Virus record (IMG/VR): IMGVR_UViG_2778260993_000007
Span: 1 to 42,288 of that record
Length of the DNA stretch: 42,288 nt
Source of the DNA: a virus
Taxonomy: Duplodnaviria; Heunggongvirae; Uroviricota; Caudoviricetes
Strand: one strand, 5' to 3'
Shown: positions 12,590 through 33,071 of the stretch, in pieces
How the letters are laid out: the number at the start of each line of letters is the position of its first letter
How positions within the stretch are numbered: position 1 is the first letter of the stretch
Position numbers and translations under genes: made by a program
The notes under the pieces: generated by a model
Seen by the model: only the letters and a program-made list of their open reading frames with translations
Database searches by the model: none
What the model was told of the DNA's origin: nothing

Positions 12590-12920
12590 ATCAGCAGCAG
12601 AGCGCAAAGCCGCTCAGAGAGCCAGACAAGCTGCATCCGGTGTACGTAAGCTGGAGATTGTGCTTGATGCTCAGGAAATTGAAATGCTGGAGCGTAACTG
12701 TGCCACGCGTCGCCCCGGGCGTGTGCCTTACGAATTTGGTGAGTATATTGCGTTACTTATCCGCCAGGATGATGCACGTGTGCGCGGGCGTATAAAATCG
12801 ATCAGCAGAAAACGTTGCGGTAAGTGCGGCGAGAGAGTTCCAGTTAATTCATGCCCGTGTAATGGTGACTCGCAATGCTGGGTGACTAAAGGCTGGCATG
12901 AAACGAAATTAATAGTGTGA
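12579..12920 (+). CDS. Hypothetical zinc-binding protein (last gene before late region)
   Basis: 113 aa with CGKCGERVPVNSCPC motif; basic N-terminus; followed by palindrome GTGACATGTCAC and a terminator. Confidence 0.45.
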   Translation: MMAKSAAERKAAQRARQAASGVRKLEIVLDAQEIEMLERNCATRRPGRVPYEFGEYIALLIRQDDARVRGRIKSISRKRCGKCGERVPVNSCPCNGDSQCWVTKGWHETKLIV

Positions 12921-12928
12921 CATGTCAC
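12917..12928. repeat. 12-bp perfect palindrome GTGACATGTCAC (copy 1 of 3)
   Basis: Exact 12-mer, also at about 15182 and 33060; overlaps stop codon of gene 12579..12920. Confidence 0.6.
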
Positions 12929-12969
12929 GAGTAGATTATGCATGATGAATTTGACGGGTTTTGAATACT

Positions 12970-12995
12970 GCCGCCAACTATGGCGGCTTTATTTT
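12970..12995 (+). terminator. Rho-independent terminator preceding terminase genes
   Basis: GCCGCCA-ACTA-TGGCGGC followed by TTTATTTT. Confidence 0.65.
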
Positions 12996-13006
12996 GCATG
13001 GTACTA

Positions 13007-13039
13007 TTACCACAACGGTAACTATTACCACGGTGGTTA
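13007..13039. promoter_or_regulatory. Operator-like sites at start of packaging/late region
   Basis: TTACC-ACAAC-GGTAA (13007..13021) and imperfect TTACC-ACGGT-GGTTA (13025..13039) overlapping the RBS/start of the terminase small subunit. Confidence 0.5.
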
Positions 13040-13635
13040 TGATGTCTGCTGAACCTAAAACCTATAAACGCAAATCAACGCAATTTAAGCCACTAACAGC
13101 AATGCAGGAGGCTTATTGCCAGTCATACATCAAAACGCCTGAAAACCAGACTCAGGCAGCGATTAACGCAGGATTCTCCCCAAATACAGCGGCAGTTAAA
13201 GCCAGTGTCATGATGCGCGATGAACGCATTCAAAAACGGATTGCCGAGTTGATGGAGGAGCGCAACAAACGAATGCGCGTCAGTGCTGATTACGTTCTCA
13301 TGCGCCTGGTGGAGATCGACCAGATGGACGTGATCGACATCCTCAACGACGATGGGAGCCTTAAACCAATCCGTGAGTGGCCTAAAATCTGGCGCACTAC
13401 GCTTAGTGGCTTTGATCTGTCATCGACCATCATGAACATGAACGAGGATTCGATAGAGACAATCCTCAAAAAAATTAAATGGCCTGACAAGGTGAAGAAC
13501 CTTGAGCTGATTGGTAAGCATGTTGATGTCAACGCGTTCAAAGAACGTCTGGATGTTAATGTGAATGTGACAATTGCTGATCGCATAGCAGCAGCCAGGA
13601 AGCGACTCAAAGAACGTCAGGATGGTAATCAGTGA
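13039..13635 (+). CDS. Terminase small subunit
   Basis: Start refined to MMSAEPK; conserved small-terminase segment (AMQEAYCQSYIKTPENQTQAAINAGFSP); directly upstream of large terminase. Confidence 0.7.
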   Translation: MMSAEPKTYKRKSTQFKPLTAMQEAYCQSYIKTPENQTQAAINAGFSPNTAAVKASVMMRDERIQKRIAELMEERNKRMRVSADYVLMRLVEIDQMDVIDILNDDGSLKPIREWPKIWRTTLSGFDLSSTIMNMNEDSIETILKKIKWPDKVKNLELIGKHVDVNAFKERLDVNVNVTIADRIAAARKRLKERQDGNQ

Positions 13636-15107
13636 CAGATACAGCGTTATCTCCTGAAGAGCAGTTGATCGAGGATATTGCAGGGTTCACTCACGATCCG
13701 CTTGGCTATGCCCTCTATGCGTTCCCGTGGGGGGAAGAGGGGACTGAACTGGCACATGCTACCGGCCCACGTCAGTGGCAGGCCGATGCGTTCCGAGAGA
13801 TACGTGATCACCTGCAGAATCCAGAGGCGCGCTATCAGCCGCTTATGCTGGCACGCGCTTCGGGTCACGGTATTGGTAAATCAGCATTCATCTCAATGCT
13901 GATCAACTGGGGCATGTCCACTTGCGAGGATTGTAAGGTCGTGGTGACTGCCAACACCGACAACCAGCTACGAACGAAGACCTGGCCGGAAATTATCAAG
14001 TGGTCGAACCTTGCTATCACGAAAGACTGGTTTACCTGTACCGCTACCGCGATGTACAGCAATGACCCTGGGCACGACAAGCGGTGGCGGGCTGACGCAA
14101 TACCCTGGTCTGAGCACAACACTGAGGCATTCGCCGGACTACACAACGAGCGCAAACGCATCATCGTGGTATTCGATGAAGCGTCGAACATTGCGGATCT
14201 GGTGTGGGAAGTTGCCGAGGGTGCGCTAACGGACGAAGACACTGAGATTATCTGGGTGGCGTTCGGAAACCCGACGCGTAATACCGGACGTTTCCGCGAA
14301 TGTTTCCGCAAATATAAACACCGCTGGAAAACTGCGCAGATTGACAGCCGGACGGTGGAAGGCACCAACAAACAGCAGTTGCAGAAATGGGTTGATGACT
14401 ACGGGGAAGACAGCGACTTCGTTAAAATCCGTGTGCGCGGCATATTCCCTGATGCATCTGAATTGCAGTTTATCCCTACCGGTCTTACTGACGAGGCAAT
14501 GAAACGGGTGGTCACCGCTGCGCAGGTTGCACATGCTCCGGTGATAATCGGCGTTGACCCGGCATACTCAGGCGTTGATGACGCGGTGATATACCTGCGG
14601 CAGGGGCTGCACAGTAAGGTGCTGTGGACCGGCAACAAGACCACTGACGATCTGATTATGGCAAAGCGTATCGCTGACTTTGAAGACCAGTATCAGGCTG
14701 ACGCGGTGTTCATCGACTTCGGCTACGGTACCGGTCTGAAGTCAATCGGTGACGGCTGGGGTCGTACATGGCAACTTGTTCCGTTCGGCGGCGCGTCTAC
14801 TGACCCGCAGATGCTCAATAAGCGCGGGGAGATGTTCAATGCATGCAAGACATGGCTGAGGCTCGGCGGGATGCTGGATGACCAGGAAACAGCGGACGAC
14901 CTGTCGGCGGCAGAGTACAAAGTTCGCGTGGACGGTAAAATCGTTATCGAACCGAAGGAAGATATCAAGGAGCGGCTTGGGCGTTCGCCGGGTAAAGGCG
15001 ATGCGCTACTGCTGACGTTTGCTTTCCCGGTGTCGAAGCGCCTGCGACTTCCCGGGCAGCAGAACCAGCAAGGCAAGGCGCTTACCGAGTACGATCCCTA
15101 TGCTTAA
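13632..15107 (+). CDS. Terminase large subunit
   Basis: 491 aa; ATPase Walker-A-like motif (ARASGHGIGKS) and C-terminal nuclease region; coupled to small subunit. Confidence 0.9.
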   Translation: MTDTALSPEEQLIEDIAGFTHDPLGYALYAFPWGEEGTELAHATGPRQWQADAFREIRDHLQNPEARYQPLMLARASGHGIGKSAFISMLINWGMSTCEDCKVVVTANTDNQLRTKTWPEIIKWSNLAITKDWFTCTATAMYSNDPGHDKRWRADAIPWSEHNTEAFAGLHNERKRIIVVFDEASNIADLVWEVAEGALTDEDTEIIWVAFGNPTRNTGRFRECFRKYKHRWKTAQIDSRTVEGTNKQQLQKWVDDYGEDSDFVKIRVRGIFPDASELQFIPTGLTDEAMKRVVTAAQVAHAPVIIGVDPAYSGVDDAVIYLRQGLHSKVLWTGNKTTDDLIMAKRIADFEDQYQADAVFIDFGYGTGLKSIGDGWGRTWQLVPFGGASTDPQMLNKRGEMFNACKTWLRLGGMLDDQETADDLSAAEYKVRVDGKIVIEPKEDIKERLGRSPGKGDALLLTFAFPVSKRLRLPGQQNQQGKALTEYDPYA

Positions 15108-15181
15108 TCCGTTAGCGGGGATAATGACGGAGATATCCTCTGGTGAGGATAAAACAAATCCAGCTCATCGGCTGGCTGTTT

Positions 15182-15193
15182 GTGACATGTCAC
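15182..15193. repeat. 12-bp perfect palindrome GTGACATGTCAC (copy 2 of 3)
   Basis: Exact 12-mer just beyond the 3' end of moron gene 15198..15569. Confidence 0.6.
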
Positions 15194-15197
15194 GGTG

Positions 15198-15569
15198 TTA
15201 TTGCTCGCTTAACTTCTGCTTCAGTAAGTAACCTTCAAGCATCCAGATTTTGTTTACAGCATTCTGCCGGGCAATCTTCCGACCAATTTCCGCATCAAAG
15301 TTTTCCGGGCTTGCACAGGCGCTCTCTCCTGTGACGGTGAAGCCGTTGCGCAGCACCAGGACGCAGAACGTCAGCAGAGAAAGTGATTCGTGCGGCTGGT
15401 AGTTTACCTCTCCGCCAGTATGTTTCGCTTTTATGGCTTTGCCAAAGGCACCATCTTCTGCTGTGAAATATGCCTCCTGAGCAATAATGCCTTCGATATG
15501 GTCTGGCGTAACGCGCGGTGCCGTTTTGCCTTTCTCAACGATTTCTTTTTCGATTTGCTGGTCGTTCAT
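15198..15569 (-). CDS. Hypothetical moron protein (opposite strand inside packaging module)
   Basis: 123 aa; AAGGTGAG RBS; opposite orientation to flanking structural genes; function unrecognised. Confidence 0.55.
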   Translation of the reverse strand: MNDQQIEKEIVEKGKTAPRVTPDHIEGIIAQEAYFTAEDGAFGKAIKAKHTGGEVNYQPHESLSLLTFCVLVLRNGFTVTGESACASPENFDAEIGRKIARQNAVNKIWMLEGYLLKQKLSEQ

Positions 15570-15575
15570 AATCTC

Positions 15576-15602
15576 ACCTTAAAAAAATGCCCGGCGAACC
15601 GG
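15576..15602 (-). terminator. Hairpin plus T7 run immediately upstream of moron RBS (terminator or attenuator)
   Basis: Minus-strand GCCCGG-TTCG-CCGGGC followed by ATTTTTTT then AAGGTGAG RBS and ATG. Confidence 0.45.
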
Positions 15603-15693
15603 GCGAACTGGAAGCAATGAGTTATGCCTTCCGTGGCTGTACTGGTTTACAGCATGAAGTCATCGCAATGGCGTCCTGCTGTAAAAAGGGCGG

Positions 15694-15735
15694 TGATAGT
15701 TCTTCAAGGGAAACCATCACCGCCAAGCACCTGGA
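15694..15735 (-). terminator. Terminator downstream of tRNA-Arg
   Basis: Minus-strand 9-bp stem GGCGGTGAT...ATCACCGCC followed by TTTTT. Confidence 0.5.
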
Positions 15736-15767
15736 ACTTCTGGCATCACGGTCCTTAGGCGTGATTC

Positions 15768-15844
15768 TGGCGTGGCATGCAGGATTCGAACCTGCGACCA
15801 ACCGCTTAGAAGGCGATTGCTCTGTCCAACTGAGCTAATGCCAC
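15768..15844 (-). tRNA. tRNA-Arg (anticodon UCU)
   Basis: 77-nt cloverleaf on minus strand: acceptor GTGGCAT/ATGCCAC, D-arm GCTC...GAGC, anticodon loop CTTCTAA, T-arm GCAGGTTCGAATCCTGC, 3' GCCA; resembles but is not identical to E. coli argU. Confidence 0.8.
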
Positions 15845-16165
15845 AACGCTGAGAGCACTTAGCCTGTTAAGGCGCCACACTTTGTCGCGGCTCCATAAAT
15901 GCTCTCATCGTTGTACCTCGTCTCTTCCGAGGCGTCACACCGAATCGCCGGGATGGTGAATCCCCGTGCGCGGAATAAAACCGCTCGACTTGCACATTCC
16001 GGCTACCTGGTTCGTTTGCCCGAGCAAGGGAGGGTGCCCCTTAAACGTACCCAGACCGCTATCGGCGCATGTGCCATACGCCGTACTACTCAAAATAAAA
16101 GCTCACTCCACCTGTTCAATTTAACGACAAGCCAGTCAGGTTAGTAACCGGAATGAACTCTTTAG

Positions 16166-16180
16166 TTACCTGAAAGGTAA
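16166..16180. promoter_or_regulatory. Operator-like site upstream of head gene operon
   Basis: TTACC-TGAAA-GGTAA about 90 bp upstream of gene 16271. Confidence 0.5.
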
Positions 16181-16270
16181 TAATTCGCGCGTTAAATGTC
16201 AACTGTCTACGATAAATAAATCATATGTGGTTAAATTGGTAATGATTTAATTGCGTACGGAGTCATTGAT

Positions 16271-16477
16271 ATGTGCATGGGTAGCTCACCATCAGTGCCT
16301 GCAACACCAGAAGTTCAGGCAGCACCACAGGAGCAGGATGCCGCCGTTGTTGATGCCCGCGACGAAGAAACACGTCGCCGTCGCGCTGCTGCTGGTCGTA
16401 GTTCTACGCTGCTTACTGGTTCTCAGGGCGACACATCAACCGCTAATACCAGCGGTAAAACGCTGCTTGGTCAGTAA
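16271..16477 (+). CDS. Hypothetical small protein (low complexity)
   Basis: 68 aa; its RBS/start context CGGAGTCATTGA(T/A)ATG is repeated at the portal gene start. Confidence 0.4.
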   Translation: MCMGSSPSVPATPEVQAAPQEQDAAVVDARDEETRRRRAAAGRSSTLLTGSQGDTSTANTSGKTLLGQ

Positions 16478-16491
16478 CCGGAGTCATTGAA

Positions 16492-18171
16492 ATGGCGGAA
16501 ACAACTAAAGAGCGATTGAACAAACAGTTCGCACAACTTGAAAGCGAGCGTCAGTCGTTCGAGCCGCACTGGCGCGAGTTGAGTGATTACATCAACCCGC
16601 GTGGTTCCCGCTTTCTGACTTCAGAGGTCAACCGTAACGATCGACGCAATACACGCATTATTGATTCGACCGGGACTATGGCGGCGCGCACTCTCGCCAG
16701 CGGCATGATGTCAGGCATCACAAGCCCCGCGCGTCCGTGGTTTCGCCTGGCTACGCCAGATCCTGAAATGATGGATTATGGCCCTGTTAAGTTGTGGCTT
16801 GAGGCGGTGCAGAACCGCATGAACGATATGTTCAATAAGTCGAATCTCTACCAGTCTCTTCCGCAGTTATACGGAAGCCTCGGCACATACAGCACTGGTG
16901 CAATGGCAGTGCTGGAGGATGACGAGGACATCATTCGCACAATGCCATTCCCGATAGGCAGTTACTACCTGGCTAACTCACCTCGTGGCAGTGTTGACAC
17001 CTGTTTTCGCAAGTTCTCTATGACTGTTCGTCAGCTTGTTCAGGAGTTCGGGCTAAATAACGTCAGCGAATCCGTAAAAAGCATGTGGGAAAGCGGCACC
17101 TACGAGAAGTGGATCGAAGTGATGCATTCGGTTTACCCGAACATTGACCGCGATACATCGAAGCTGGATAGCAAGAACAAGCCATTCAAATCGGTTTATT
17201 ACGAGGTTGGCGGCGATAACGACAAGTTGTTGCGTGAGTCCGGATTCGATGAGTTTCCAATTATGGCTCCGCGCTGGGAAGTTAACGGCGAAGATGTTTA
17301 TGGATCATCATGCCCGGGTATGCTGGCGCTTGGACCTGTTAAGGCATTGCAGCTTCTCCAGAAGCGCAAGTCGCAGTTGATTGATAAAGCCACCAATCCG
17401 CCGATGGTTGCTCCGACTTCCCTCAAGAATCAGCGCGCCTCCCTTCTTCCTGGCGACATCACGTATATCGATCAGATTACTGGTCAGGATGGTTTCAGGC
17501 CTGCTTATCTGGTTAACCCCAGTACAGCAGATCTGGTGGCAGACATTCAGGACACTCGCCAAATCATTAACAGCGCCTACTTTGTCGATCTGTTCATGAT
17601 GTTGCAGAACATCAATACCCGCTCGATGCCTGTTGAAGCGGTGATCGAAATGAAAGAAGAAAAACTTCTGATGTTGGGGCCGGTTCTGGAGCGTCTGAAC
17701 GACGAATGTCTTAATCCTCTCATTGACCGCGCTTTCTCTATGATGGTGCGTAAAAACATGCTGCCGCCACCGCCTGACGCGATGGAAGGCATGCCCCTGA
17801 AGGTCGAATACATTTCCGTCATGGCTCAGGCGCAGAAGTCTATCGGCCTGTCCAGTCTGGCGTCCACGGTTAACTTCATTGGTCAACTTGCGCAAGCGAA
17901 ACCAGAAGCTCTCGACAAACTCAACGTTGATCAGGCGATCGATGCATTCGCTGATATGTCCGGAGTGTCTCCAACCGTCATTGTTCCGCAGGAACAGGTT
18001 GAGCAGGCTCGCCAGCAACGGGCACAGCAACAACAGCAGCAACAAATGATGGCGATGGGGATGGCGGCGGCACAGGGTGCCAAGACGCTAAGTGAAGCTA
18101 AAACTTCGGATCCGAGTGTTTTGTCAGCTATGGCGAATGCAGTTAGTGGTCAGGGTGGGCAATCACAATGA
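16492..18171 (+). CDS. Portal (head-to-tail connector) protein, T7 gp8-like
   Basis: 559 aa; C-terminal Gln/Met-rich tail (QQQQQQQMMAMGMAAAQG) as in T7 gp8; position after terminase. Confidence 0.8.
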   Translation: MAETTKERLNKQFAQLESERQSFEPHWRELSDYINPRGSRFLTSEVNRNDRRNTRIIDSTGTMAARTLASGMMSGITSPARPWFRLATPDPEMMDYGPVKLWLEAVQNRMNDMFNKSNLYQSLPQLYGSLGTYSTGAMAVLEDDEDIIRTMPFPIGSYYLANSPRGSVDTCFRKFSMTVRQLVQEFGLNNVSESVKSMWESGTYEKWIEVMHSVYPNIDRDTSKLDSKNKPFKSVYYEVGGDNDKLLRESGFDEFPIMAPRWEVNGEDVYGSSCPGMLALGPVKALQLLQKRKSQLIDKATNPPMVAPTSLKNQRASLLPGDITYIDQITGQDGFRPAYLVNPSTADLVADIQDTRQIINSAYFVDLFMMLQNINTRSMPVEAVIEMKEEKLLMLGPVLERLNDECLNPLIDRAFSMMVRKNMLPPPPDAMEGMPLKVEYISVMAQAQKSIGLSSLASTVNFIGQLAQAKPEALDKLNVDQAIDAFADMSGVSPTVIVPQEQVEQARQQRAQQQQQQQMMAMGMAAAQGAKTLSEAKTSDPSVLSAMANAVSGQGGQSQ

Positions 18172-18464
18172 CAGATTACGAAGACGATCAACTGAAAGAA
18201 GAAAACGCCCGTAAGCAACGTGACATGGTGCAGCGTGAAATTGATGACATTCGCTTTGTCATGAGCAGTGAACAGGGGCGTCGCGTTGTCTGGTCGGTGC
18301 TGGAGAAAGGCCGTGTGTTTTCCGCTATCTCACCGATGGACGCTATGGCAATGGCATTTAATGAGGGGCAACGCAATCTGGCGCTGGAACTGTTTCAGCG
18401 CGTTATGGCGCATTGCCCTGAACAGTATTTGAAGATGGCCAAAGAGGCCAGTGAACAGGAGTGA
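18168..18464 (+). CDS. Hypothetical head-module protein
   Basis: 98 aa, translationally coupled between portal and scaffold genes. Confidence 0.45.
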   Translation: MTDYEDDQLKEENARKQRDMVQREIDDIRFVMSSEQGRRVVWSVLEKGRVFSAISPMDAMAMAFNEGQRNLALELFQRVMAHCPEQYLKMAKEASEQE

Positions 18465-19162: not shown

Positions 19163-19176
19163 AAGAGGAAATGACA

Positions 19177-20163
19177 ATGGCTGTTAAAGGCTTAACTGCG
19201 CTAACGCTGGCTGACTGGGGTAAGCGCGTCGATCCAAACGGGAAAGTCGATAAGATTATCGAGCTTCTCGGTCAAACTAACCCGATCCTTCAGGATATGC
19301 CTTTTGTCGAAGGGAACCTTCCTACCGGACACCGAACCACCATTCGTTCTGGTTTACCTTCAGCTACCTGGCGTTTGCTGAACTATGGCGTACAGCCAAG
19401 CAAATCAACCACAGTGCAGGTAACCGATTCCGTTGGCATGCTGGAAACCTATGCGGAAGTCGATAAGTCACTGGCTGATCTGAACGGCAATACCGCCGAA
19501 TTCCGCCTGTCTGAAGACCGCGCATTTATTGAAGCGATGAATCAGCAGATGGCGCAGACGCTGTTTTATGGTGATTCCAGCGTTAACCCTCAGCAGTTTA
19601 TGGGACTGTCCTCCCGCTATTCCAGCCTGTCTGCGGGTAATGCTCAGAACATCATTGATGCTGGTGGCACGGGTACAGATAACACCTCAATCTGGTTAGT
19701 GGTGTGGGGCGAAAACACCGTGCATGGCATCTTCCCGAAAGGGCAGAAGGCTGGCATCCAGATGGAAGATAAAGGCCAGGTGACACTGGAAGATGCTAAT
19801 GGCGGCAAGTACGAAGGCTATCGCACCCATTACAAATGGGATAACGGACTTGCTCTGCGTGACTGGCGTTATGTTGTTCGCATTGCAAACATCGATGTCA
19901 GCAATCTTTCAGAACCTTCCTCTGCCGCAAATATTGCGAAGTTGATGGTTAAAGCACTGCATCGCATTCCAAACCGTGGAATGGGTCGCCCGGTGTTCTA
20001 CATGAACCGCACTGTAGGCCAGGCTCTTGATCTGCAATCTCTGGAGAAAACATCTCTGGCGATCAGCGTAAAAGAGACAGAAGGCGAGTGGTGGACTTCA
20101 TTCCGTGGTGTACCAATCCGTGAAACTGATGCGCTTCTGGAAACAGAAGCCCGCGTGGTGTAA
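19177..20163 (+). CDS. Major capsid protein
   Basis: About 328 aa; second ATG chosen for RBS spacing (GAGGAA); position and size typical of major capsid; followed by small decoration-like genes and a strong terminator. Confidence 0.75.
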   Translation: MAVKGLTALTLADWGKRVDPNGKVDKIIELLGQTNPILQDMPFVEGNLPTGHRTTIRSGLPSATWRLLNYGVQPSKSTTVQVTDSVGMLETYAEVDKSLADLNGNTAEFRLSEDRAFIEAMNQQMAQTLFYGDSSVNPQQFMGLSSRYSSLSAGNAQNIIDAGGTGTDNTSIWLVVWGENTVHGIFPKGQKAGIQMEDKGQVTLEDANGGKYEGYRTHYKWDNGLALRDWRYVVRIANIDVSNLSEPSSAANIAKLMVKALHRIPNRGMGRPVFYMNRTVGQALDLQSLEKTSLAISVKETEGEWWTSFRGVPIRETDALLETEARVV

Positions 20164-20214
20164 CGCCTGTTATTAACCTGTGGGTCGTAACAGACCCACT
20201 AATGGAGAAAGAAG

Positions 20215-20652
20215 ATGATCACCGACAAACTGTTGATATTCTCCGAAGCTCAGGCGGTTACGAATACCGCGGCTTCTACTGACGTAATCGATCTCGGTCC
20301 AATTGACGGAAAACGTCGTGATATCGGCGTGGGTTACCCGCTTGAGTTTTGGGCGCTGGTTAATACAGCCGCCGCAGCAAGCGGTGATGCAACTGTAAAC
20401 ATCCAGTTGCAGACGAGTGAGGATAACAGCTCATGGACCACTATTTATGATAGTGGTGCACTGGCAAAGACCGCCCTGACAGCAGGTAAACGAGTTGTTT
20501 CTGCAAAGGTGCCTGCCGGTGTTCAGCGATATCTGCGTGTTAACTACTCCGTCGCAACTGGTCCACTAACGGCCGGCAAATTCACTGCGGGTATCAGTCT
20601 GGATGTTGATGCCAATACACCGTACCCGATCCGCTCAAAAGTAACTGGTTAA
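20215..20652 (+). CDS. Putative capsid decoration / structural protein
   Basis: 145 aa, Ala/Thr/Val-rich beta-type composition, GAGAAAG RBS. Confidence 0.45.
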   Translation: MITDKLLIFSEAQAVTNTAASTDVIDLGPIDGKRRDIGVGYPLEFWALVNTAAAASGDATVNIQLQTSEDNSSWTTIYDSGALAKTALTAGKRVVSAKVPAGVQRYLRVNYSVATGPLTAGKFTAGISLDVDANTPYPIRSKVTG

Positions 20653-20653
20653 G

Positions 20654-20998: not shown

Positions 20999-21014
20999 GC
21001 CTCGCGAATCAGAC

Positions 21015-21037: not shown

Positions 21038-21054
21038 CAGGAGTATAGAAACTT

Positions 21055-25161: not shown

Positions 25162-27869
25162 TGCCTGTTGTTCCTACTACATCCGGACGCCAGGTGCAAA
25201 GTCGTGGTGTGCAAACCGGTGGTTTTCAGATCTTCGATGTTCCTCAAGCAGGTCAGGTGCTGGCGAATGTCGCAGATCAGTATGCGGTGGCATATGGTGA
25301 AGCCAGGCAGAAAGCGAATGTTGCATTGTCTCAGGATGCCATCCTTCAGCTTAATCAGCGCAGCAATGAACGTCTTTATAACCCTCAAACCGGTTTTTAT
25401 GCACAACAAGGCAAAAATGCGATTGGTAAGGGGCAAGAGTACATATCTGGATTTGATCAGGATGTGGAAGAAATAGCTGCTTCATTGACTGATGAAGCAG
25501 CAAGAAATATGTTTTTGCAACAAGCCAGAACACAGAAAATTCAGTTCAGTACTGGAGTTCTCAGACATGAGATAGGGCAGACAAATGCCTATGAAGATGA
25601 GCAATATCAGGCAACGAGAAAATTATGGATACAAAATGAAGCGGATGCCTGGAATGACCCGCAAACTGCCACTTTAGCCAGAAATTCCAGAATGGTAGCC
25701 ATTGCCAGATATGGAGCAGCCAGGGGATGGTCACAAGAACGCATTCTGGAAGAAATAGAAAGTGATGATCGCAGTGCCACAGAAATGCGGGCGAAGAATT
25801 ATGCCGCTGCTAATCCAGAAGGATGGCTAAATGGTCTGTTTCAGAAAAATGATTCTGGAGGCATGGACATGCGTGCCATACGCCTTGTTGAATCAGGTGA
25901 TCGACATTTTAATCCTGATGGTAGTCTTCTTGAAGGACCGATAACATCTTCTGGAGAGAGAGCCCAGGGGAAATACCAGTTAATGCCGGGCACAGGGAAA
26001 GAACTGGCGGCCAAGCGTGGCGTTGAATACAACCCTACGGACGAACAACAGCATGAAATGCTCGCCAGTGACTATGTAAATCAACTGTATGGTAAGTACG
26101 GCTCCGAAATATTGACCGGAGCAGCATATAACTGGGGGATGGGTAACGTGGATAAACTGATCGCCAAAGTCGGTGATCCGCGTAAAGGTGAAATATCAGA
26201 AGAAGAATTTATCCGAAATCTTCCATCAGAAACACAAGGGTGGCTTTCCCGATATAGAAAAAATAAAACTGGAATGGATCCGCTGACTATTTATCAAATA
26301 GATAACCTTGCTAATAGTCAGATAGAAAAGCAAAGGAAGTTAATATTAGAACAGCTTGAGCCAGCTATTAATAACACCATGGCCCAGCTATATAACGGTG
26401 AGGTTCCAGATTATATACCGGCTCAGGAGACTATCATCAGGGGGTATGGAAAAAATGCAGATAAAATAATCAATCAACTGGATATAGCGATTGATAACGC
26501 GAGAATATTCCAGGCAATTCAGTATTTACCTCCTTCTCAGCAGCAAGAAGAAATGCAGAAAGTGAAGCCTGAGGTTAACGATCCTCACTATGCGTTAAAA
26601 CTCGATGCTTACGGAAAATTGTCTGCATTGCTTCAGAGATCAAATGAAGCAATTCAGGCGCAACGGGATTCACGCAGATTCAATGAGGCGCTGACAATAG
26701 GTGAAAAATTAGACCCAAGCAACAAGTCAATGCAGAAAGCTGCTGATTACACAGAAATGGCGCAGAACTTTCGTATTAATGATGCCTCCACTCATGATGG
26801 GGTTGTTCGGCTTGTGGCTCAGACTGGCATAATGCCTTCGCAGGTCATCACGCAGCTTTCAGCAGTATCCCGATCCAGCAATCAGGAAGTGGTTAAAAAT
26901 GCGGCGGAACTGTTTAGTCGGTTATATGAAACAGACAATGCATCTATTGGAAATATGCCGAAGGATATGCAGGGTTTTTATCTGACTGTTAAGCAACTAA
27001 CTGATGCAGGGATGTCTTCAGATGCTGCTATTGTGGAAGCGCAGAGTAAGACATACAACCAGACAGATGCACTAAGGGCGCAGCTCTCATCTGTTCAGAG
27101 TACAAGAGAATACAAAAAAGAGCGTGACAGCGCAGCCAATTCTGCTGTCAGCAATATGGCTCATTGGCTTCGCTGGGATCCGTCTGCGGATGACCAGACG
27201 CCGGAAGCAGCGCTCTTTCGCAATGACTATCAGATGCTGTATGACGTTAACTATCGCCTTGCTGGTGGTAACGCTGACGTAGCGAAGCAAATGACCAACC
27301 AGCAGATAGCCCGCACCTGGAGTATCAGCGAGGTCAACGGGGAAGCACAGTTTATGAAATATGCACCGGAGGCGCTTTATCAATATGGGCCGTCAGGCTG
27401 GATTGCAGCGCAATGGAAAGCTGAAAAAGAAAAAATCATGTATGGCGATGACTTGCATAAACCAGCTCCTTCATTTAACCGACCTTCAACTGAGGCTGGT
27501 GCATTGGGACTGAATACACCACGCTCACTGGTTGGAGGTGAGTTGATTCTTGTTCCTGATTTATCAACTCCGAGAGATAAGCTTTATTCAGTTGTGATCA
27601 GAACAAAAGATAAAGATGGTATTACGAGGGATGATTTATTTTATGACAAGCATGGAAGACTGATGCGCTGGGGGCCATCACTAGAAGATTGGGAACCTTA
27701 TAAGAAAATGCAGCAGGAACGGGAGCAGCACGAGCAGGAAGAAATTATGCGTGGACAGGCTATACAAAACTTCAAAGACAAGCATCGTGCTCTGGATGAG
27801 CAGTATCAGCGCCTGCATAACGAACGTATGGACAAATTTAAAGATTACTTTTCGTGGGGATCTAAATAA
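25161..27869 (+). CDS. Internal virion (ejection) protein with lytic transglycosylase domain
   Basis: 902 aa; SLT-type motif region (ESGDRHFNPDG...AQGKYQLMPGT...YNWG). Confidence 0.65.
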   Translation: MPVVPTTSGRQVQSRGVQTGGFQIFDVPQAGQVLANVADQYAVAYGEARQKANVALSQDAILQLNQRSNERLYNPQTGFYAQQGKNAIGKGQEYISGFDQDVEEIAASLTDEAARNMFLQQARTQKIQFSTGVLRHEIGQTNAYEDEQYQATRKLWIQNEADAWNDPQTATLARNSRMVAIARYGAARGWSQERILEEIESDDRSATEMRAKNYAAANPEGWLNGLFQKNDSGGMDMRAIRLVESGDRHFNPDGSLLEGPITSSGERAQGKYQLMPGTGKELAAKRGVEYNPTDEQQHEMLASDYVNQLYGKYGSEILTGAAYNWGMGNVDKLIAKVGDPRKGEISEEEFIRNLPSETQGWLSRYRKNKTGMDPLTIYQIDNLANSQIEKQRKLILEQLEPAINNTMAQLYNGEVPDYIPAQETIIRGYGKNADKIINQLDIAIDNARIFQAIQYLPPSQQQEEMQKVKPEVNDPHYALKLDAYGKLSALLQRSNEAIQAQRDSRRFNEALTIGEKLDPSNKSMQKAADYTEMAQNFRINDASTHDGVVRLVAQTGIMPSQVITQLSAVSRSSNQEVVKNAAELFSRLYETDNASIGNMPKDMQGFYLTVKQLTDAGMSSDAAIVEAQSKTYNQTDALRAQLSSVQSTREYKKERDSAANSAVSNMAHWLRWDPSADDQTPEAALFRNDYQMLYDVNYRLAGGNADVAKQMTNQQIARTWSISEVNGEAQFMKYAPEALYQYGPSGWIAAQWKAEKEKIMYGDDLHKPAPSFNRPSTEAGALGLNTPRSLVGGELILVPDLSTPRDKLYSVVIRTKDKDGITRDDLFYDKHGRLMRWGPSLEDWEPYKKMQQEREQHEQEEIMRGQAIQNFKDKHRALDEQYQRLHNERMDKFKDYFSWGSK

Positions 27870-30800
27870 TGCCGTTCTATCCTGTATCTGAATCAAACAA
27901 TAACGGATTTATTTCTGCTGGTCGCGCCATTCCTGAACCTGATGAACAGAGTTTTGATGTGCATCCGCCAGAAGGTAAGAACCCTGAGCCTCGCCAAAAA
28001 GAGCCTTCATTGCTTGCCGCAGCAATACGACAGAACAATATTCTGGCTGGTTTTTTCCGTCCTGCCAGACAGTTTGAACCGGTCGAGGGTTATAACCCAT
28101 ATGCTGATAAAAATGAGTTGCACGGCTATGAATACTGGGGTGCGAAATTTGCAGGTTCCCGCTCGCCAGAAGAAACAGCGTGGATTAAGCAGCAGATAGA
28201 TGATGAAAATGAAGATCGGCGTTTTATCTCTGAAGCAGGCTTAGCTGGTGGAATTGCCAGTGCAACAGCGATGCTTTTTGACCCGGTTACTGTTGCGTCA
28301 ATGTTTATCCCAGGTGCTCAAGGAGGGGCACTGGCGCGTATTGGCTCACAGATTGCGATTGGTGCTGCCGGTACTGCATTAAGCGAGGTTGTACTGAATA
28401 ATCAGCAAATAACACGCTCATGGGGTGAAAGTGCCGCTCACGTTGCAGCGGGTGCGATAATGAGCGGCGTGTTTGCCAGTGCTGGTGTTGCGCTTTCGCC
28501 ATCTGTCCGGGCTGCAGCCACGCGTGAGGTTGCTGATGCTCTTGATAATATGAGCATTACATCAGCGACTGACAGGGCTGCCGCTTCGCTTTCTGATGGT
28601 GGTAGTGTTGGTGCTATGAAAATTGATACAGCGACTCTGGATGATTTAACCCCTGTTTCCGGTGGGCGGGTTGGAAAGGCTGCATGGAAAGCAGGGAGCT
28701 ATCTTACTCCTTTGACAAGGTTAATGGAGTCTCCGTCCAAGACGGTGCGAAAAACAACGCTGGAGTTAGCCGAAAATAATTTCACCCTTAAAGGAAATGA
28801 AAGGGGGATTGAAACACCGGTAGCTGTAGAAACCCGTACACGTGGATGGCAGCGTGAAGAAGCTGCTGTTGTTGTCGGAAATAAACAGGCATACGCAAAG
28901 TATAAAGCTGATGGTGGTGACATGAGTTTTGATTCATTTCGTCAGCAGGTTGGGAATGCTATGCGAAGCGGTGATGTGCATGCTAATCCTGTTGTTCAGG
29001 AAACGGCGCAGGCGATGCGAACTGTATTAAATCGGGTAAAAGTTGAAATGCAAAAGCTTGGTTTATTGCCGCCAGATGAAGAACTGAAAGCATTAGGCCA
29101 GGCAAGCTATTTCCCACGCATATATAAAGTTGGAAAAATAATCAGTGAACGCGATAAATTTCGACGCATTTTGGTTGACTGGTGGTCGAGAGGAAATAAA
29201 AAACTGGATCCTGAGGATGCTGAAATTGCAGCGGATATCGTAATTAATAAAATTACTGGTGCTAAGGTTCCACAGGATTTTGTCAGCGTATTTTCTGTAA
29301 AAGCCGCAGGTAGTACGAAAGAAAGAACATTAAATGTTCCTGATAGTCTTATCAGGGATTATCTTGAAAGTGATGTGAATTACGTGCTGCAACGTCATAT
29401 CCGTGAAGCGGCAGCAGAAATTGAGTTGACGAGAACATTTGGCAAACGAACTATGACTGAGCGTCTGCAATTAATTGAGGACGAATATGACAGTCTGTTA
29501 CGGGAAGTGCCTGAAAAAATAAAGGCGAAATATGACGAAAGTGTGGCAAATCTGAAAGCACGTTATGAGAGCAATGGTGAAGTTGTTCCTCAGGGTAAAC
29601 TCGATTCATTAATGCGAAAGTACGAAAAGGAATTACGGAAAGAACAGTCCAGACTTTCAAAATCAAGAGCAAATGATCTCAGAGACATAACAGCATTACG
29701 CGATCGTCTTGTTGGTACATATGGGATGCCTGATGATCCGTCTTCGTTTTTTGTTCGTGCTGGCGCTTTTCTGCGGGATGTGAACTTCACGACCAAACTC
29801 GGTGGAATGACAGTATCAGCTATTCCAGATCTGGCCAGAGGGGTTATGGTTAATGGTTTCCGTAACACCATGAAAGGCTATGCTTCTCAGATATCCCAAT
29901 CACCGGCATTTAAGGCCAGCAAAGAAGATATGTTGAAGATGGGGATTGGATTGGAAGCTGTACTACATTCACGTTCTCGTGCAATTGGTGATCTTGTTGA
30001 CAGTTCTTCCAGGACAACAGCAGTCGAAGCAGGAATGGAGCGAATTACTGATGCCTTCGGCAAGCTGACACTCATGGATCGATTTAATGACATAAACAAA
30101 TCCATGAACGGAATGCTCACGTCAGACGGTATTTTGTCTGGTGCGTTTTCTGCACGTCGCATGGCAAAACTCGGTATCAACGACAATATGGCTGCGCGTA
30201 TTCGCAGTGAGTTCGAGAAACATGGTGAGGTAATTGATGGATGGCACATTGGTAACTTTGATAAATGGGACGATCAGTACGTTGCCGGAGTATTCCAGTC
30301 AGCGGTTCTGAAAGACGTTAATAACACTATCATCACCCCCGGTATTGGTGACACACCTTTATGGGCGAGTACTCCAATGGGGCGAACGATATTTCAGTTT
30401 AAATCATTCACAACGGCTTCATACAACCGTGCGCTACTTGGTGGGTTACAGGAAGGAACTGCGCAATTTTATTATGGCACTGCATTTCAGATTGCTCTTG
30501 GCTCACTGGTCTATGCGCTTAAAGAAGCATCGAAAGGGAAAAATGTTGACTGGTCACCAGAGAAGCTGGTGCTTGAGGGTATAGATAGATCCGGTATTCT
30601 TGGGCCATTGATGGAATATAACAACATGGCTGAAAAGGCGACTGGTGGTGCTGTTGGGCTGGGGGCTTTATTTGGCACTGGCACACAGTCCAGGTATGCC
30701 AGTCGTGGATTCGTAGGATCTCTATTCGGACCGTCATTTGGTCTTGCGGATAGCATCATTGATGTGACCTCAGGAGTGTTGAATGGTGATGCCGGTGATC

Positions 30801-30892
30801 GTATTGTGCATAATGTCCGAACCCTGATACCCGGCAATAACCTGTTCTGGATTGCGCCACTAATAAACCAGGTGGATCCGGTGATGCGTTAA
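27869..30892 (+). CDS. Large internal virion / ejection protein (gp16-like)
   Basis: 1007 aa; size and position after the transglycosylase-containing protein. Confidence 0.6.
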   Translation: MPFYPVSESNNNGFISAGRAIPEPDEQSFDVHPPEGKNPEPRQKEPSLLAAAIRQNNILAGFFRPARQFEPVEGYNPYADKNELHGYEYWGAKFAGSRSPEETAWIKQQIDDENEDRRFISEAGLAGGIASATAMLFDPVTVASMFIPGAQGGALARIGSQIAIGAAGTALSEVVLNNQQITRSWGESAAHVAAGAIMSGVFASAGVALSPSVRAAATREVADALDNMSITSATDRAAASLSDGGSVGAMKIDTATLDDLTPVSGGRVGKAAWKAGSYLTPLTRLMESPSKTVRKTTLELAENNFTLKGNERGIETPVAVETRTRGWQREEAAVVVGNKQAYAKYKADGGDMSFDSFRQQVGNAMRSGDVHANPVVQETAQAMRTVLNRVKVEMQKLGLLPPDEELKALGQASYFPRIYKVGKIISERDKFRRILVDWWSRGNKKLDPEDAEIAADIVINKITGAKVPQDFVSVFSVKAAGSTKERTLNVPDSLIRDYLESDVNYVLQRHIREAAAEIELTRTFGKRTMTERLQLIEDEYDSLLREVPEKIKAKYDESVANLKARYESNGEVVPQGKLDSLMRKYEKELRKEQSRLSKSRANDLRDITALRDRLVGTYGMPDDPSSFFVRAGAFLRDVNFTTKLGGMTVSAIPDLARGVMVNGFRNTMKGYASQISQSPAFKASKEDMLKMGIGLEAVLHSRSRAIGDLVDSSSRTTAVEAGMERITDAFGKLTLMDRFNDINKSMNGMLTSDGILSGAFSARRMAKLGINDNMAARIRSEFEKHGEVIDGWHIGNFDKWDDQYVAGVFQSAVLKDVNNTIITPGIGDTPLWASTPMGRTIFQFKSFTTASYNRALLGGLQEGTAQFYYGTAFQIALGSLVYALKEASKGKNVDWSPEKLVLEGIDRSGILGPLMEYNNMAEKATGGAVGLGALFGTGTQSRYASRGFVGSLFGPSFGLADSIIDVTSGVLNGDAGDRIVHNVRTLIPGNNLFWIAPLINQVDPVMR

Positions 30893-30913
30893 TCAATATT
30901 TATTGGAGTTCTT

Positions 30914-31441
30914 TCAATGGCTGTTTATGGCTTCTAAAGAATCTTCTGCACTTATCGGCAAAGCAATAGCATCCTTGTTAGATGTGCTATTGCTTTCCAG
31001 AACGATGGAAATCCAATCCTCTTGGTTTTTATTAATTGTGCTGACAGCCATGATAGCATTCAAATCGTTTTTATATATTTCTGATCGAATAAGACCTTTC
31101 CTGAATAATTTAGTTAAGCTTTCCGCTATCGACATCGCACGAATGCTAACTTTACTAAGCTCAATGACGTCACTACCTGCGACTTTAGCGTGTTGAGAAA
31201 GAGCCATCAAAGCTATATGCGAAAATGTTTCTTCTTTTGAAAAACCATTACTTAAAGACAGGAGTGATACACTAGCTCCGTATGGGGTGAGCTTATATCC
31301 TGATACATTCAATGCATGCTCTACAAAGATAAGAGCATCAGTTGTAGAAGCATGGATATTGTTACTTTTTTGTTTTTTCGCAATAAATAAAAAAACAAAA
31401 TTAATAATTACGATGCCGACAATGATTAAGAAAACTTCCAT
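30914..31441 (-). CDS. Membrane-anchored hypothetical protein (accessory)
   Basis: 175 aa; N-terminal TM helix MEVFLIIVGIVIINFVFLFIA; AT-rich; promoter, operator and first codons duplicated in inverted orientation at 35151..35200. Confidence 0.6.
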   Translation of the reverse strand: MEVFLIIVGIVIINFVFLFIAKKQKSNNIHASTTDALIFVEHALNVSGYKLTPYGASVSLLSLSNGFSKEETFSHIALMALSQHAKVAGSDVIELSKVSIRAMSIAESLTKLFRKGLIRSEIYKNDLNAIMAVSTINKNQEDWISIVLESNSTSNKDAIALPISAEDSLEAINSH

Positions 31442-31481
31442 TGCTTTTCCTCACAATAACATTACCTTAAAGGTAATATTT
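31432..31481. repeat. Inverted repeat IR-1, left copy
   Basis: About 50 bp (operator, promoter, RBS, ATGGAAGTTTTCT) is the reverse complement of 35151..35200. Confidence 0.7.
31462..31476. promoter_or_regulatory. Operator-like site upstream of membrane protein gene 30914..31441
   Basis: TTACC-TTAAA-GGTAA; part of 50-bp inverted repeat shared with 35151..35200. Confidence 0.5.
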
Positions 31482-31501
31482 TGTGTTAATGTAATCAAGT
31501 G

Positions 31502-31900
31502 TTAAGTGTAAACCTCCTGCTGTTCAGTGGTGATTTTACCCGGCAACACCTTTTTAGCTTTGCGTGGGTTAACTACATGGCCTTTAGTCCAGTAATCGTA
31601 GAGCACATCGTCACACTCTTCCTGATACTGGATTACCTTGTCGCGGATTTCAGGGCGTACTTTGTTTGGACTGATGCTGTTCAACCAAGCTGCCAATTTT
31701 CGTAAAGCCATACAAATCATGGCTTGCACCCCACCGGCAGAAGGTATGGTGATTTCCACCATACCCTTCGAGAAGCGTTGAGAAATCTTCTTATGTTGAG
31801 ATTTCCAGTCTAGCCCCATTCCCTCAACGATAGGTTTCATTGGGGTATACGGTTCACCGTTGTGATTGACAACATAAAGATCTGCGCCGTGGAATGGCAC
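31502..31900 (-). CDS. Putative antirepressor-like protein (P22-antirepressor N-terminal-like domain)
   Basis: 132 aa; segment GEPYTPMKPIVEGMGLDWKSQ...GGVQAM resembles N-terminal domains of phage antirepressors; weak RBS, start uncertain. Confidence 0.45.
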   Translation of the reverse strand: MPFHGADLYVVNHNGEPYTPMKPIVEGMGLDWKSQHKKISQRFSKGMVEITIPSAGGVQAMICMALRKLAAWLNSISPNKVRPEIRDKVIQYQEECDDVLYDYWTKGHVVNPRKAKKVLPGKITTEQQEVYT

Positions 31901-31994
31901 GTTGATAATAGTGACAAATTTGAAACATCGCTGGTTGTAAGCCAGCAGATGCTCGTTATTTTACATCGCGGTACAATTTCTCGCTGGTGGCTCT

Positions 31995-32328
31995 TTTACA
32001 CACCTTAACCAAATACGGTTGATTTTAATATTTCTAAGCGCTTATCATTACCTTTTCGGTAAATTTACATCGCATTCCTCTTGTGCCATAGTAATCGGGC
32101 ACTGGCAAAATCCAGTGCCGGGATTGGTCTCCCGGATTACTACAGAGGCACATATGCCGCATAAGCGGTTTTTTTATGTGTAAAGCGCACCTATTCTATG
32201 GTGGGCTGTGTGGGGGCACCGAAAGGTGCGCCGGGTCCTTTGTAGCCGGTAAGACCAACTCTGCACAGTTCACCACCATCTGATTGGTCTCAGCGGTGGT
32301 GATTAACCTAACTACAAAGGTGATCGCC
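31995..32328. repeat. Inverted repeat IR-2, left copy (antirepressor leader)
   Basis: About 330 bp, roughly 85-90 percent identical to the reverse complement of 34790..35125. Confidence 0.65.
32048..32062. promoter_or_regulatory. Operator-like site in leader of BRO-type antirepressor gene
   Basis: TTACC-TTTTC-GGTAA adjacent to putative -35 TTTACA. Confidence 0.5.
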
Positions 32329-33021
32329 ATGAATACCAAACCTTCCATCTTTTCCTTTGAGTCATCCTGCCAGATCCGTATGTTCATGATTGACGGAGAA
32401 CCTTGGTTTGTCACCAAAGATGTGTGCAATGCTTTGAATATTGATGTTACACAAGCGAGAAAACTTGATAAAAAAGGCTGGAACAAAAAGGGGCTGTATT
32501 CAATACAGACCCCTGGTGGAATACAAGAACTATCCATCGTTTCAGAATCAGGTCTCTACATCCTTATTCTGCGTTGCAAAGAGGCAATGACTGAGGGAAC
32601 GAGAGCATTCAGATTTCTTGAATGGGTTACAGGTGAGGTTCTTCCTCAGATCCGCCGCACCGGAAGTTACATTAAAAACTCGCTCCCGCAGGAAGAACGC
32701 ATAAAGATGGTTGCCGACCAGGTAGCCAACGCCACGGCGTCAGCAGTAATGCAGGCGATGAAGATAGAGAACAAAACCTACAGCGCCCCGCTGAAGCCCG
32801 GCTACCGCAGTTTGATTCACTCGCCGTCTGGTGTTCTCGGCCTGACGGAGAACTCACTGCTGATGAATCTGCTGAACCAGTTACAGGAAGACGGGCACGA
32901 CGTATCGGGCGCGGCGGCGGAGCTGACCACCATGTTCTGCTACATCGTCGGTGTGAGCAAATGCCTGCGTGATATCCAGACGCACGCGGAGTACATCAAC
33001 GACAAGGCAGGGTTCTTCTGA
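32329..33021 (+). CDS. Antirepressor, BRO-N domain plus shared C-terminal domain
   Basis: Start refined to MNTKPSIF (AAGGTGA RBS); BRO-N-like N-terminus (FMIDGEPWFVTKDVCNALN...GEVLPQIRRTGSY); C-terminal about 80 aa identical to C-terminus of 34133..34789. Confidence 0.7.
   Translation: MNTKPSIFSFESSCQIRMFMIDGEPWFVTKDVCNALNIDVTQARKLDKKGWNKKGLYSIQTPGGIQELSIVSESGLYILILRCKEAMTEGTRAFRFLEWVTGEVLPQIRRTGSYIKNSLPQEERIKMVADQVANATASAVMQAMKIENKTYSAPLKPGYRSLIHSPSGVLGLTENSLLMNLLNQLQEDGHDVSGAAAELTTMFCYIVGVSKCLRDIQTHAEYINDKAGFF
32770..33021. repeat. Inverted repeat IR-3, left copy (shared antirepressor C-domain coding region)
   Basis: About 250 bp nearly identical to reverse complement of 34133..34385; the few differences seen are synonymous. 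Confidence 0.7.
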
Positions 33022-33059
33022 CAGAACGGCGGCACAGGGATGTGCAAAACGGAACTATC

Positions 33060-33071
33060 GTGACATGTCAC
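33060..33071. repeat. 12-bp perfect palindrome GTGACATGTCAC (copy 3 of 3)
   Basis: Exact 12-mer between BRO-type antirepressor stop and its terminator. Confidence 0.6.

Follow-up and report, generated by a model that had tools for sequence, protein, structure and literature searches.

Palindromes at the ends of three long rightward units

Analysis of a viral DNA stretch of 42,288 nucleotides (nt) (IMG/VR record IMGVR_UViG_2778260993_000007; this whole stretch is called the window here) raised the question of what a perfect 12-bp palindrome, GTGACATGTCAC, does at three junctions between functional modules. The overall explanation proposed here, which may well be correct, is that GTGACATGTCAC is the local form of a conserved DNA operator of 12 to 14 bp, Y-GTGAC-NN-GTCAC-R, for the protein encoded at 12582-12920, a putative transcriptional regulator whose stop codon lies within one of the copies. 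The three identical palindromes themselves are real and strongly conserved sites. They mark the 3' ends of three long transcription units that run rightward, namely, the early-right, the terminase, and the structural-plus-ant unit, and each copy lies beside an intrinsic terminator. The features concerned are as follows.

12582-12920 (open reading frame [ORF] 12579-12920), plus strand: candidate binder gene, 112 amino acids (aa), PHROG 536 "transcriptional regulator"
12917-12928, no strand assigned: putative operator copy 1 (tGTGACATGTCACg), including the TGA stop codon (12918-12920) of the regulator gene; end of the early-right unit
12970-12987, plus strand: intrinsic terminator t1 (GCCGCCAACTATGGCGGC, then a T-run), between copy 1 and terS
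15160-15175, no strand assigned: terminator hairpin t2 (CCAGCTCATCGGCTGG), with a T-run that is good on the minus strand and weaker on the plus strand
15182-15193, no strand assigned: putative operator copy 2 (tGTGACATGTCACg); end of the terS-terL unit
33060-33071, no strand assigned: putative operator copy 3 (cGTGACATGTCACa); end of the structural (plus inserted isrK/C4/ant) unit
33072-33089, plus strand: intrinsic terminator t3 (AGGCCGCTTTCGCGGCCT, then a T-run), touching copy 3

The window contains exactly three perfect copies of GTGACATGTCAC. None of 100 dinucleotide-preserving shuffles of the window contained any copy, and the analytic expectation is about 0.0025, which bears out the statement in an earlier note on this DNA that three exact copies lie far above chance. 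No additional copies were found in the window at one or two mismatches, and matches with three mismatches were fewer than expected by chance. The palindromes thus form a sharp family and are not the tip of a degenerate repeat. The earlier note had placed the copies at the stop of the last early gene, beyond the 3' end of a moron gene, and between the ant stop codon and its terminator, and had called these places module junctions. All three positions were found as described, and the term is descriptively right; more exactly, they are the unit ends listed above.

Copy 1 includes the stop codon with which the last early-right gene ends, and terminator t1 follows it after 41 nt. Copy 2 is positioned 6 nt past the bidirectional terL terminator hairpin t2, and 4 nt separate it from the stop codon (15198-15200) of a moron gene on the minus strand (15198-15569) that belongs to the N4-gp49/Sf6-gp66 family (Pfam Phage_gp49_66). 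Copy 3 is located between the Bro-N/Ant gene (32284-33021) and hairpin t3, which it abuts. The equivalents of t2 and t3 carry terminator annotation in phiV10.

Conservation of the sites in close relatives

The window represents an epsilon15-like (Uetakevirus) prophage near phiV10. Host DNA makes up its right 1.2 kb (41109-42288), which matches E. coli K-12 yfgI/yfgH, next to guaA, with 98.6% identity; this places the prophage at the guaA attachment site, with its end near 41109. In phiV10, the 12-mer is found after terL (2262) and directly before the structural-operon terminator (19493), and a third copy, with one mismatch, is split over the ends of the linear record. The E15-type Salmonella phage, SPN1S, and Enterobacter phage Tyrion contain three perfect copies each, in the three equivalent places. 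The DNA flanking the conserved 12-mers is only about 80% identical among these relatives.

The palindrome and its terminator follow the last structural gene in phiV10 (19493), the E15-type phage (19727), SPN1S (19662), and Tyrion (20377). In the window, an inserted isrK/C4/ant module separates the last structural gene from copy 3, and palindrome plus terminator still end the unit. Copy 2 is kept after terL in the relatives, and the sequence to its right is highly variable. The earlier note had raised two possibilities against its own proposal, and neither was borne out. The 12-mer is present at equivalent positions of related phages, and it is not common in the host chromosome: a 200-kb sample of E. 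coli K-12 DNA did not contain it, while one true matS site (GTGACAGTGTCAC) was recovered in Ter as a positive control.

A degenerate fourth palindrome was observed on the Rz stop codon, at the end of the lysis unit, in SPN1S (GTGACATGTCAT; L003, 26722) and in the E15-type phage (GTGACATGGCAT; L002, 26830). In the window it has decayed to ATAGCATGGCAT at 40995-41006, followed by TTTTCATGGTACT, a string that is also present after terminator t1, at 12993.

Two other roles for the palindromes were rejected. A cos site or genome end had been considered since the phiV10 record begins within copy 1, which is so merely because the depositors opened the record after the last stop codon. A TerS/pac site does not fit, since the motif accompanies the regulator into N15, which has a lambda-type cos terminase, and into P2-like phages.

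Geometry of the motif

The motif was analyzed in 267 IMG/VR loci (4.28 Mb) centered on homologues of the regulator gene, a set later extended to 4.56 Mb with more genomes. GTGAC-NN-GTCAC was found 369 times in the 4.28 Mb, versus 4.1 expected from base composition, and 386 times in the 4.56 Mb of regulator-encoding loci, versus about 4 expected. Half-site spacings other than 2 bp occurred 0 to 11 times in the larger set (only once for the 3-bp spacing), and the inverted arrangement GTCAC-Nn-GTGAC occurred 0 to 3 times. Comparison of the flanks revealed Y at position -1 in 381 of the 386 sites and R at position +1 in 366, giving the consensus Y-GTGAC-NN-GTCAC-R. Both half-sites are invariant, and the central dinucleotide differs by lineage (in the 4.28 Mb, AT in 307 sites, CT in 25, GT in 13, and AC in 9; also GC and TG). 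The centers of the sites in one locus usually agree (99 loci versus 16). Conversely, when 80 IMG/VR stretches that contain TGTGACATGTCACG were sampled, 63 came from regulator-bearing lineages.

The isolated RNA hairpin has an energy of -1.2 kcal/mol, equal to that of shuffled sequences (z = -0.03), and is missing from the minimum-energy fold at site 3. No compensatory stem changes were seen among related sites, and the palindrome sites gave no Rfam match. The invariant half-sites, the variable center, the lack of compensatory changes, and a hairpin no better than shuffles indicate a DNA site read by a symmetric protein. The motif is short and dyad symmetric with a fixed half-site spacing, as in operators of ribbon-helix-helix (RHH) proteins. 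The palindrome was also rejected as part of a terminator, since its hairpin is at shuffle level; the true terminator hairpins are separate and adjacent.

The earlier note had suggested either a binding site for a dimeric protein or a recombination or processing signal. The first suggestion is well supported by the comparative evidence, as the invariant dyad half-sites, the strict 2-bp spacing, the variable center, and the co-occurrence and covariation with a gene of predicted RHH type (see below) would all suit a dimeric protein. The second was not upheld. No cassette-like duplication was found, and processing is disfavored by the negligible hairpin and by an asymmetric Pseudomonas variant that disrupts the RNA stem. 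A cassette between two palindromes was likewise discarded, as the loci with sites about 540 nt downstream are a different element group and the apparent insertion after site 1 consists of a gene for 70 aa that brings no second copy with it.

In six further IMG/VR contigs (L297, L345, L316, L326, L331, and L338), a full 14-mer is surrounded by GTGAC/GTCAC half-sites that are clustered like iterons, e.g., GTCACgcGTGACcgggtGTGACATGTCACgcGTGAC. No regulator homologue was present in the fetched stretches of these loci, and other phage groups may use half-site arrays.

The candidate binding protein

The regulator belongs to the family of epsilon15 gp49, phiV10 gp55, and N15 gp46, and its gene is the last of the early-right genes. 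Alignment of the family revealed three invariant residues, R8, C79, and C82, and five near-invariant residues, R13, E54, L59, P87, and C99. An AlphaFold2 (AF2) model with a predicted local distance difference test (pLDDT) score of 91.7 consists of a basic helix (residues 5 to 19), an extended segment (20 to 29), two helices (30 to 42 and 52 to 74), a Cys-rich knuckle, and a final helix (100 to 108). Searching the PDB with this model by Foldseek revealed nothing significant. In Pfam, RHH_5, RHH_1, and RepB-RCR_reg were matched below threshold only, in a few family members, and NCBIfam gave a weak match to the RHH-type YbfE. The model and these matches suggest that the regulator is likely to consist of an RHH core and a C-terminal Cys4 zinc module. 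A TraR/DksA-like zinc finger was rejected, as the C-terminal half matched PDB profiles with an E value of only about 0.3, its cysteines are spaced differently, and Pfam gave no match.

About 200 sites in the IMG/VR loci are positioned on or directly after the stop codon of the regulator gene. Where this gene ends in TAA instead of TGA, the motif is retained 6 to 9 nt downstream of the stop codon. This retention with displacement indicates that the motif is not a by-product of coding.

The motif accompanies the regulator into distant phages

Searching with tblastn revealed regulator homologues in N15 (gene 46), phiKO2 (gp45), Yersinia P2-like myoviruses, Vibrio siphoviruses, and Aeromonas phages. 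N15 and phiKO2 contain exactly three GTGAC(TG/CA)GTCAC sites each in matching places: one lies on the regulator stop codon, one in the immA (antirepressor) operon leader, and one within repA, and none of them is an annotated partition site. The Yersinia P2-like phage vB_YenM_31.17 has a single site, on the regulator stop codon. Vibrio phage K303 has three 12-bp sites, of which one follows the regulator gene at a distance of about 230 nt and precedes the terS start codon by 31 nt, another lies about 20 to 30 nt before the start of another gene, and one in the gap preceding the lysis genes, about 290 nt upstream of the holin gene. Lambda and P22 have neither the regulator gene nor the motif. In a BLASTP profile of all window ORFs, only ORF 12579-12920 had homologues in N15, the Yersinia phage, and K303, and none was found in lambda or P22.

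Distant homologues of the regulator are also present in Pseudomonas. A phage contig of the P. lurida type carries GTGACTGGTCAC on the stop codon and three more sites with a 2-bp center. In three Pseudomonas genomes whose regulator is about 29% identical, the motif is shifted to GT(G/T)AC-SS-GT(C/A)AC and occurs in four to five copies per 12 to 20 kb, versus about 0.08 expected. One of these copies lies on the regulator stop codon and one on its GTG start codon; in one locus (L403) an in-frame stop codon precedes this start by 3 nt. The asymmetric form GTGACGGGTAAC is unable to pair as RNA and was found in both orientations. The site thus shifts along with the divergent regulator and is recognized as DNA. 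Protein and site co-occur in six independent lineages and covary in the divergent Pseudomonas clade.

Placement of the sites

Analysis of the placement revealed that 332 of 389 motif sites (85%) are intergenic or at a gene end, compared with 76 of 389 random positions (20%). Among the 332 sites, 243 lie within 15 nt of a predicted stop codon, and 160 (48%) have a terminator-like hairpin with a T-run within 45 nt, compared with 34 of 389 random intergenic positions (9%). The preference for noncoding DNA and gene ends repeats in independent lineages. In one subgroup, tandem sites are 33 bp apart.

Three groups of loci showed particular arrangements. In L203-L228 and others (L206, 3709; L170, 543), a copy lies within a 107-aa early-left ORF, where it encodes T-C-D-M-S; none of its synonymous positions varies, even though the proteins are only about 45% identical, and this points to selection on the DNA itself within a coding region. 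In L201, L196, L199, and L155, the putative operator lies just past the regulator stop codon, 6 nt upstream of the -35 element of a promoter that contains a LexA box (TACTGT-N8-ACAGTA) and drives a umuD-like gene. The AT-rich elements L235-L271 encode a regulator of about 38% identity with no site on its stop codon and have an 851-aa ORF upstream; they may be satellites or integrative elements. In these elements (e.g., L246, 3805-3880), a tandem of GTGACATGGCAC and GTGACATGTCAC separated by 21 nt, together with a further half-site, is located about 540 nt downstream of the regulator gene in a 700-nt noncoding region.

A second motif at the starts of transcription units

The window contains a second dispersed palindromic motif, TTACC-N5-GGTAA, in 18 copies at no more than one mismatch, compared with 1.3 in shuffles. 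The copies are at the following positions.

Copies with at most one mismatch, left part of the window: 5436, 5498, 6210, 6258, 6595, 8517, 8579, 13007, 13025
Copies with at most one mismatch, right part of the window: 16166, 31462, 32048, 34047, 35061, 35154, 36274, 39083, 39325

This motif fills the repressor/cro region, and almost all transcription units have a copy upstream. Examples are the copies before terS (13007), the portal block (16166), the isrK/C4/ant module (32048), the tailspike gene (36274), the lysis genes (39083), and other starts. It is probably the operator of the immunity repressor, and if so, direct repression of the "late" promoters would be implied. GTGACATGTCAC was rejected as the immunity operator since the repressor/cro intergenic region carries TTACC-N5-GGTAA and not the 12-mer. 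The genome is thus punctuated by two motifs, TTACC-N5-GGTAA at the starts of units and GTGACATGTCAC at the ends of three long rightward units. Because TTACC-N5-GGTAA marks the starts of the late units themselves, these units need no read-through.

Resemblance to matS

Both pentamer half-sites of the phage motif are those of matS (GTGAC-RNY-GTCAC), and this resemblance is real. The matS site is 13 bp long in E. coli and V. cholerae, and prophages avoid it (PMC3603311). Sites with a 2-bp center account for 386 of the 387 sites with a 2- or 3-bp center in the related loci and for all three window sites. No homology of the regulator to MatP was detected by hhalign (probability, 0.2%), and the regulator model is without the four-helix bundle and the coiled coil of MatP. 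The insertion locus guaA/yfgI/yfgH, at about 2.63 Mb in K-12 coordinates, is outside the Ter macrodomain. Membership in matS was rejected on the basis of the length of 12 instead of 13 bp, the locus outside Ter, the missing MatP homology, and the fact that the motif follows the regulator into Pseudomonas. To our knowledge, Pseudomonas has no MatP. Most hosts of motif-bearing phages (Enterobacterales, Vibrio, and Aeromonas) encode it.

Besides its three 12-bp sites, K303 (L274) has one site of 13 bp that truly fits the matS consensus (GTGACACCGTCAC), at 19491-19503, where it overlaps a small gene's stop codon.

Proposed function and alternative explanations

The motif, its conservation, its strict geometry, and its placement are established by the comparative data, as are its exclusive association and its covariation with the regulator gene. 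These data suggest that the regulator probably binds the motif physically. Whether the sites affect transcription at the ends of units is an evenly balanced matter, and a negative effect there, as a roadblock or insulator, is proposed tentatively. A dimer of the regulator, or a pair of dimers, would recognize the 12- to 14-bp operator. Since the regulator is the last product of the early-right operon, it would build up late in the early phase and then occupy the three unit ends. The DNA-bound protein would act as a roadblock or insulator that reinforces unit boundaries beside intrinsic terminators. As a roadblock it would keep early-right transcription out of the terminase genes, and as an insulator it would prevent late units and opposed morons from transcribing into each other. 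This proposal is based on several observations. The late units have promoter-operators of their own, and the units converge at the junctions that hold sites 2 and 3. Most RHH proteins act as repressors, and the regulator genes of Pseudomonas are bracketed by sites in a manner resembling autoregulation. The N15 sites inside repA and in the immA leader also point in this direction.

Several points weigh against the roadblock or insulator proposal. Some sites lie inside genes (repA of N15 and phiKO2; the 107-aa early-left ORF in one subgroup), so that "unit end" is not universal. The loci are not independent, and the counts given above are inflated by common ancestry, as many of the prophages are near-identical. 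A host factor that recognizes GTGAC half-sites is a conceivable binder. Finally, the gene order and the position of the sites relative to the terminators would suit antitermination equally well, as follows.

It is unlikely, on present evidence, that the regulator is a Q-like, DNA-tethered antiterminator or late activator, which would load onto RNA polymerase at the sites, allow it to pass the adjacent terminators, and thereby join the early-right, terminase, structural, and downstream units in late transcripts. The order of regulator gene, site, terminator, and late genes is that of lambda Q/qut/tR' and of P22 23/qut/t-late, and the site lies upstream of a terminator along the direction of transcription at site 1, at site 3, and on the moron side of site 2. 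The K303 sites about 20 to 31 nt before the starts of terS and another gene and about 290 nt before the holin gene would also suit an activator. No Q-family match was found in Pfam, NCBIfam, or the PDB, and a Q homologue is not evident in the epsilon15-like group, although N15 has both Q and the regulator. Site 1 contains a -35-like GTGACA with an 18-nt spacer to CATGAT (a promoter-like match at 9 of 12 positions) and a terminator downstream; this promoter-like match is, however, lost in the variant with a small gene after site 1 and is not present at sites 2 and 3. Against antitermination, a TTACC-N5-GGTAA promoter-operator region is present at each of the terS, portal, tailspike, and lysis units, and read-through at the convergent junctions of sites 2 and 3 would give antisense RNA only. 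Moreover, a terminator following the site is missing in many lineages, the regulator gene of Pseudomonas is flanked by copies on both sides as is typical of autorepression, and N15 and phiKO2 have a site inside repA.

An architectural role is more unlikely still. The protein would bridge the three sites as MatP does and loop or condense the phage DNA for packaging, replication, or SMC exclusion, and the placement at unit ends would reflect a mere need for noncoding spots with little transcription. The half-sites shared with matS, the bracketing of terS-terL by sites 1 and 2, the tandem sites 33 bp apart, and the few and widely spaced sites per genome are consistent with this role. It is disfavored by the absence of MatP homology, of the four-helix bundle, and of the coiled coil in the regulator, by the single site of the Yersinia P2-like phage, and by an association with stop codons and terminators that is stronger than a preference for any intergenic spot would predict.

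The three remaining explanations are all highly improbable. Binding of the sites by host MatP, as matS-like sites, would be in line with the identical half-sites, the presence of MatP in most hosts, and the one true 13-bp matS-like site of K303. It is opposed by the strict 12-bp length of the phage sites (386 with a 2-bp center versus 1 with a 3-bp center) compared with 13 bp for matS, by the avoidance of matS by prophages, by the position of the prophage outside the Ter macrodomain, and by the tracking of the regulator by the motif even in Pseudomonas, where the half-site changes along with the phage protein. An element acting in RNA, either a small hairpin for processing or stability or a translational operator near ribosome-binding sites, might be suspected from the palindromic sequence and from the many copies located 1 to 15 nt before a Shine-Dalgarno sequence or directly before a terminator hairpin; yet the hairpin is no better than shuffles and does not appear at site 3 when the RNA is folded at minimum energy, a stem including the invariant positions 5 and 8 would force an impossible 2-nt loop, GTGACGGGTAAC disrupts the stem and is found in both orientations, and neither compensatory changes nor an Rfam match was found at the sites. 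A recombination signal or hot spot of module exchange is suggested by mosaic breakpoints that coincide with palindromes (at least eight different sequences begin 1 to 4 nt right of site 2, alternative sequences follow site 1, and, compared with phiV10, the window has gained the ant module immediately to the left of site 3), but any conserved regulatory element beside a moron slot resembles a breakpoint, no cassette is flanked by duplicate sites, no dedicated recombinase co-occurs with the motif, and the copies inside genes and around the regulator gene do not fit.

Other features of the prophage

Inverted isrK small RNA and C4 antisense RNA modules are present in two copies, at 32099-32280 (plus strand) and 34839-35024 (minus strand), both above the Rfam gathering score. 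One of them lies directly upstream of Bro-N/Ant and resembles the P1-type immI control of an antirepressor, placed in an epsilon15-like phage. The moron region that separates terL from the portal block contains a tRNA-Arg gene (anticodon TCT) at 15768-15844 on the minus strand. The replication-initiator-like ORF 6906-7697 includes, at 7161-7284, four direct repeats of 19 nt (AATATAACCAAAAACGGGA-like), which are probably origin iterons.

Comparison with known systems

A phage transcription factor with its operator is a kind of system that is already known. The pairing of this motif with this protein, its placement on the protein's own stop codon and on operon ends, its spread over unrelated phages, and its one-base offset from matS look new. 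The motif is undescribed in the GenBank records, and a literature search, which did not cover the epsilon15 genome paper (PMC2698709), where an earlier mention is possible, found neither the 12-mer nor its variants in a phage context. A specific cis element is now paired with a specific, easily purified protein of 112 aa, and the pair is conserved in at least six phage lineages; motif and gene together provide a compact marker for annotating such prophages and their transcription units. Among the epsilon15-like phages are phiV10, SPN1S, and numerous prophages at guaA in E. coli and Salmonella. It is doubtful, though conceivable, that a widespread family of small RHH-plus-zinc phage proteins constitutes a new transcription unit boundary element with a timed decision to stop or pass polymerase. 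Such a system would range over enterobacterial podoviruses, N15-like plasmid prophages, P2-like myoviruses, and Vibrio and Pseudomonas phages.

Compared with MatP/matS, the phage site is 12 bp and not 13 bp long, and the phage protein is predicted to have a zinc module and has no MatP homology. The phage motif is found in phage genomes, here in a guaA prophage, and in Pseudomonas elements, not in Ter. The identity of the half-sites raises the question of whether phages deliberately sit one base pair from a host chromosome-organizing signal, and the phage protein might compete with or evade host MatP.

The predicted fold, the small size, and the short dyad operators resemble those of RHH repressors such as Arc, Mnt, CopG, omega, MetJ, and the antitoxins of toxin-antitoxin systems, as does the autoregulatory placement around the protein's own gene in the Pseudomonas relatives. 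The half-site centers are 7 bp apart, as in omega heptads. The regulator differs from these proteins in its N-terminal basic helix, its putative Cys4 zinc module, and its operators at the 3' ends of genes.

P2 Ogr and P4 delta are small zinc finger activators of late genes that recognize TGT-N12-ACA dyad sites at -55 of late promoters. They share with the regulator the character of a small phage protein that would bind zinc and a dyad element repeated a few times per genome. Motif and position are different, however, there is no homology, and the Yersinia P2-like phage has one copy, at the regulator stop codon.

Like lambda Q and P22 gp23, the regulator is encoded by the last early gene and is followed by a DNA site of its own, an intrinsic terminator, and the late genes. 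In contrast to them, it has no Q homology and has extra sites at unit ends without promoters, and N15 and phiKO2 carry both proteins.

The stoperators of mycobacteriophage L5 and Cluster A phages (gp71 sites) are reportedly short repressor sites scattered in short intergenic gaps. They are said to often overlap stop or start codons and to act on elongating polymerase, not at promoters. They are described as asymmetric 13-mers that work in an orientation-dependent manner, number about 30 per genome, and are bound by a helix-turn-helix immunity repressor. The phage motif shares the location in short gaps and on stop codons. Here, by contrast, the immunity operator is a separate motif, the presumed binder is an RHH protein of the early operon, and there are 1 to 5 sites per genome. 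If it is true that this protein acts at the ends of operons, the system would be a Gram-negative counterpart of the mycobacteriophage stoperators, with another fold and another logic.

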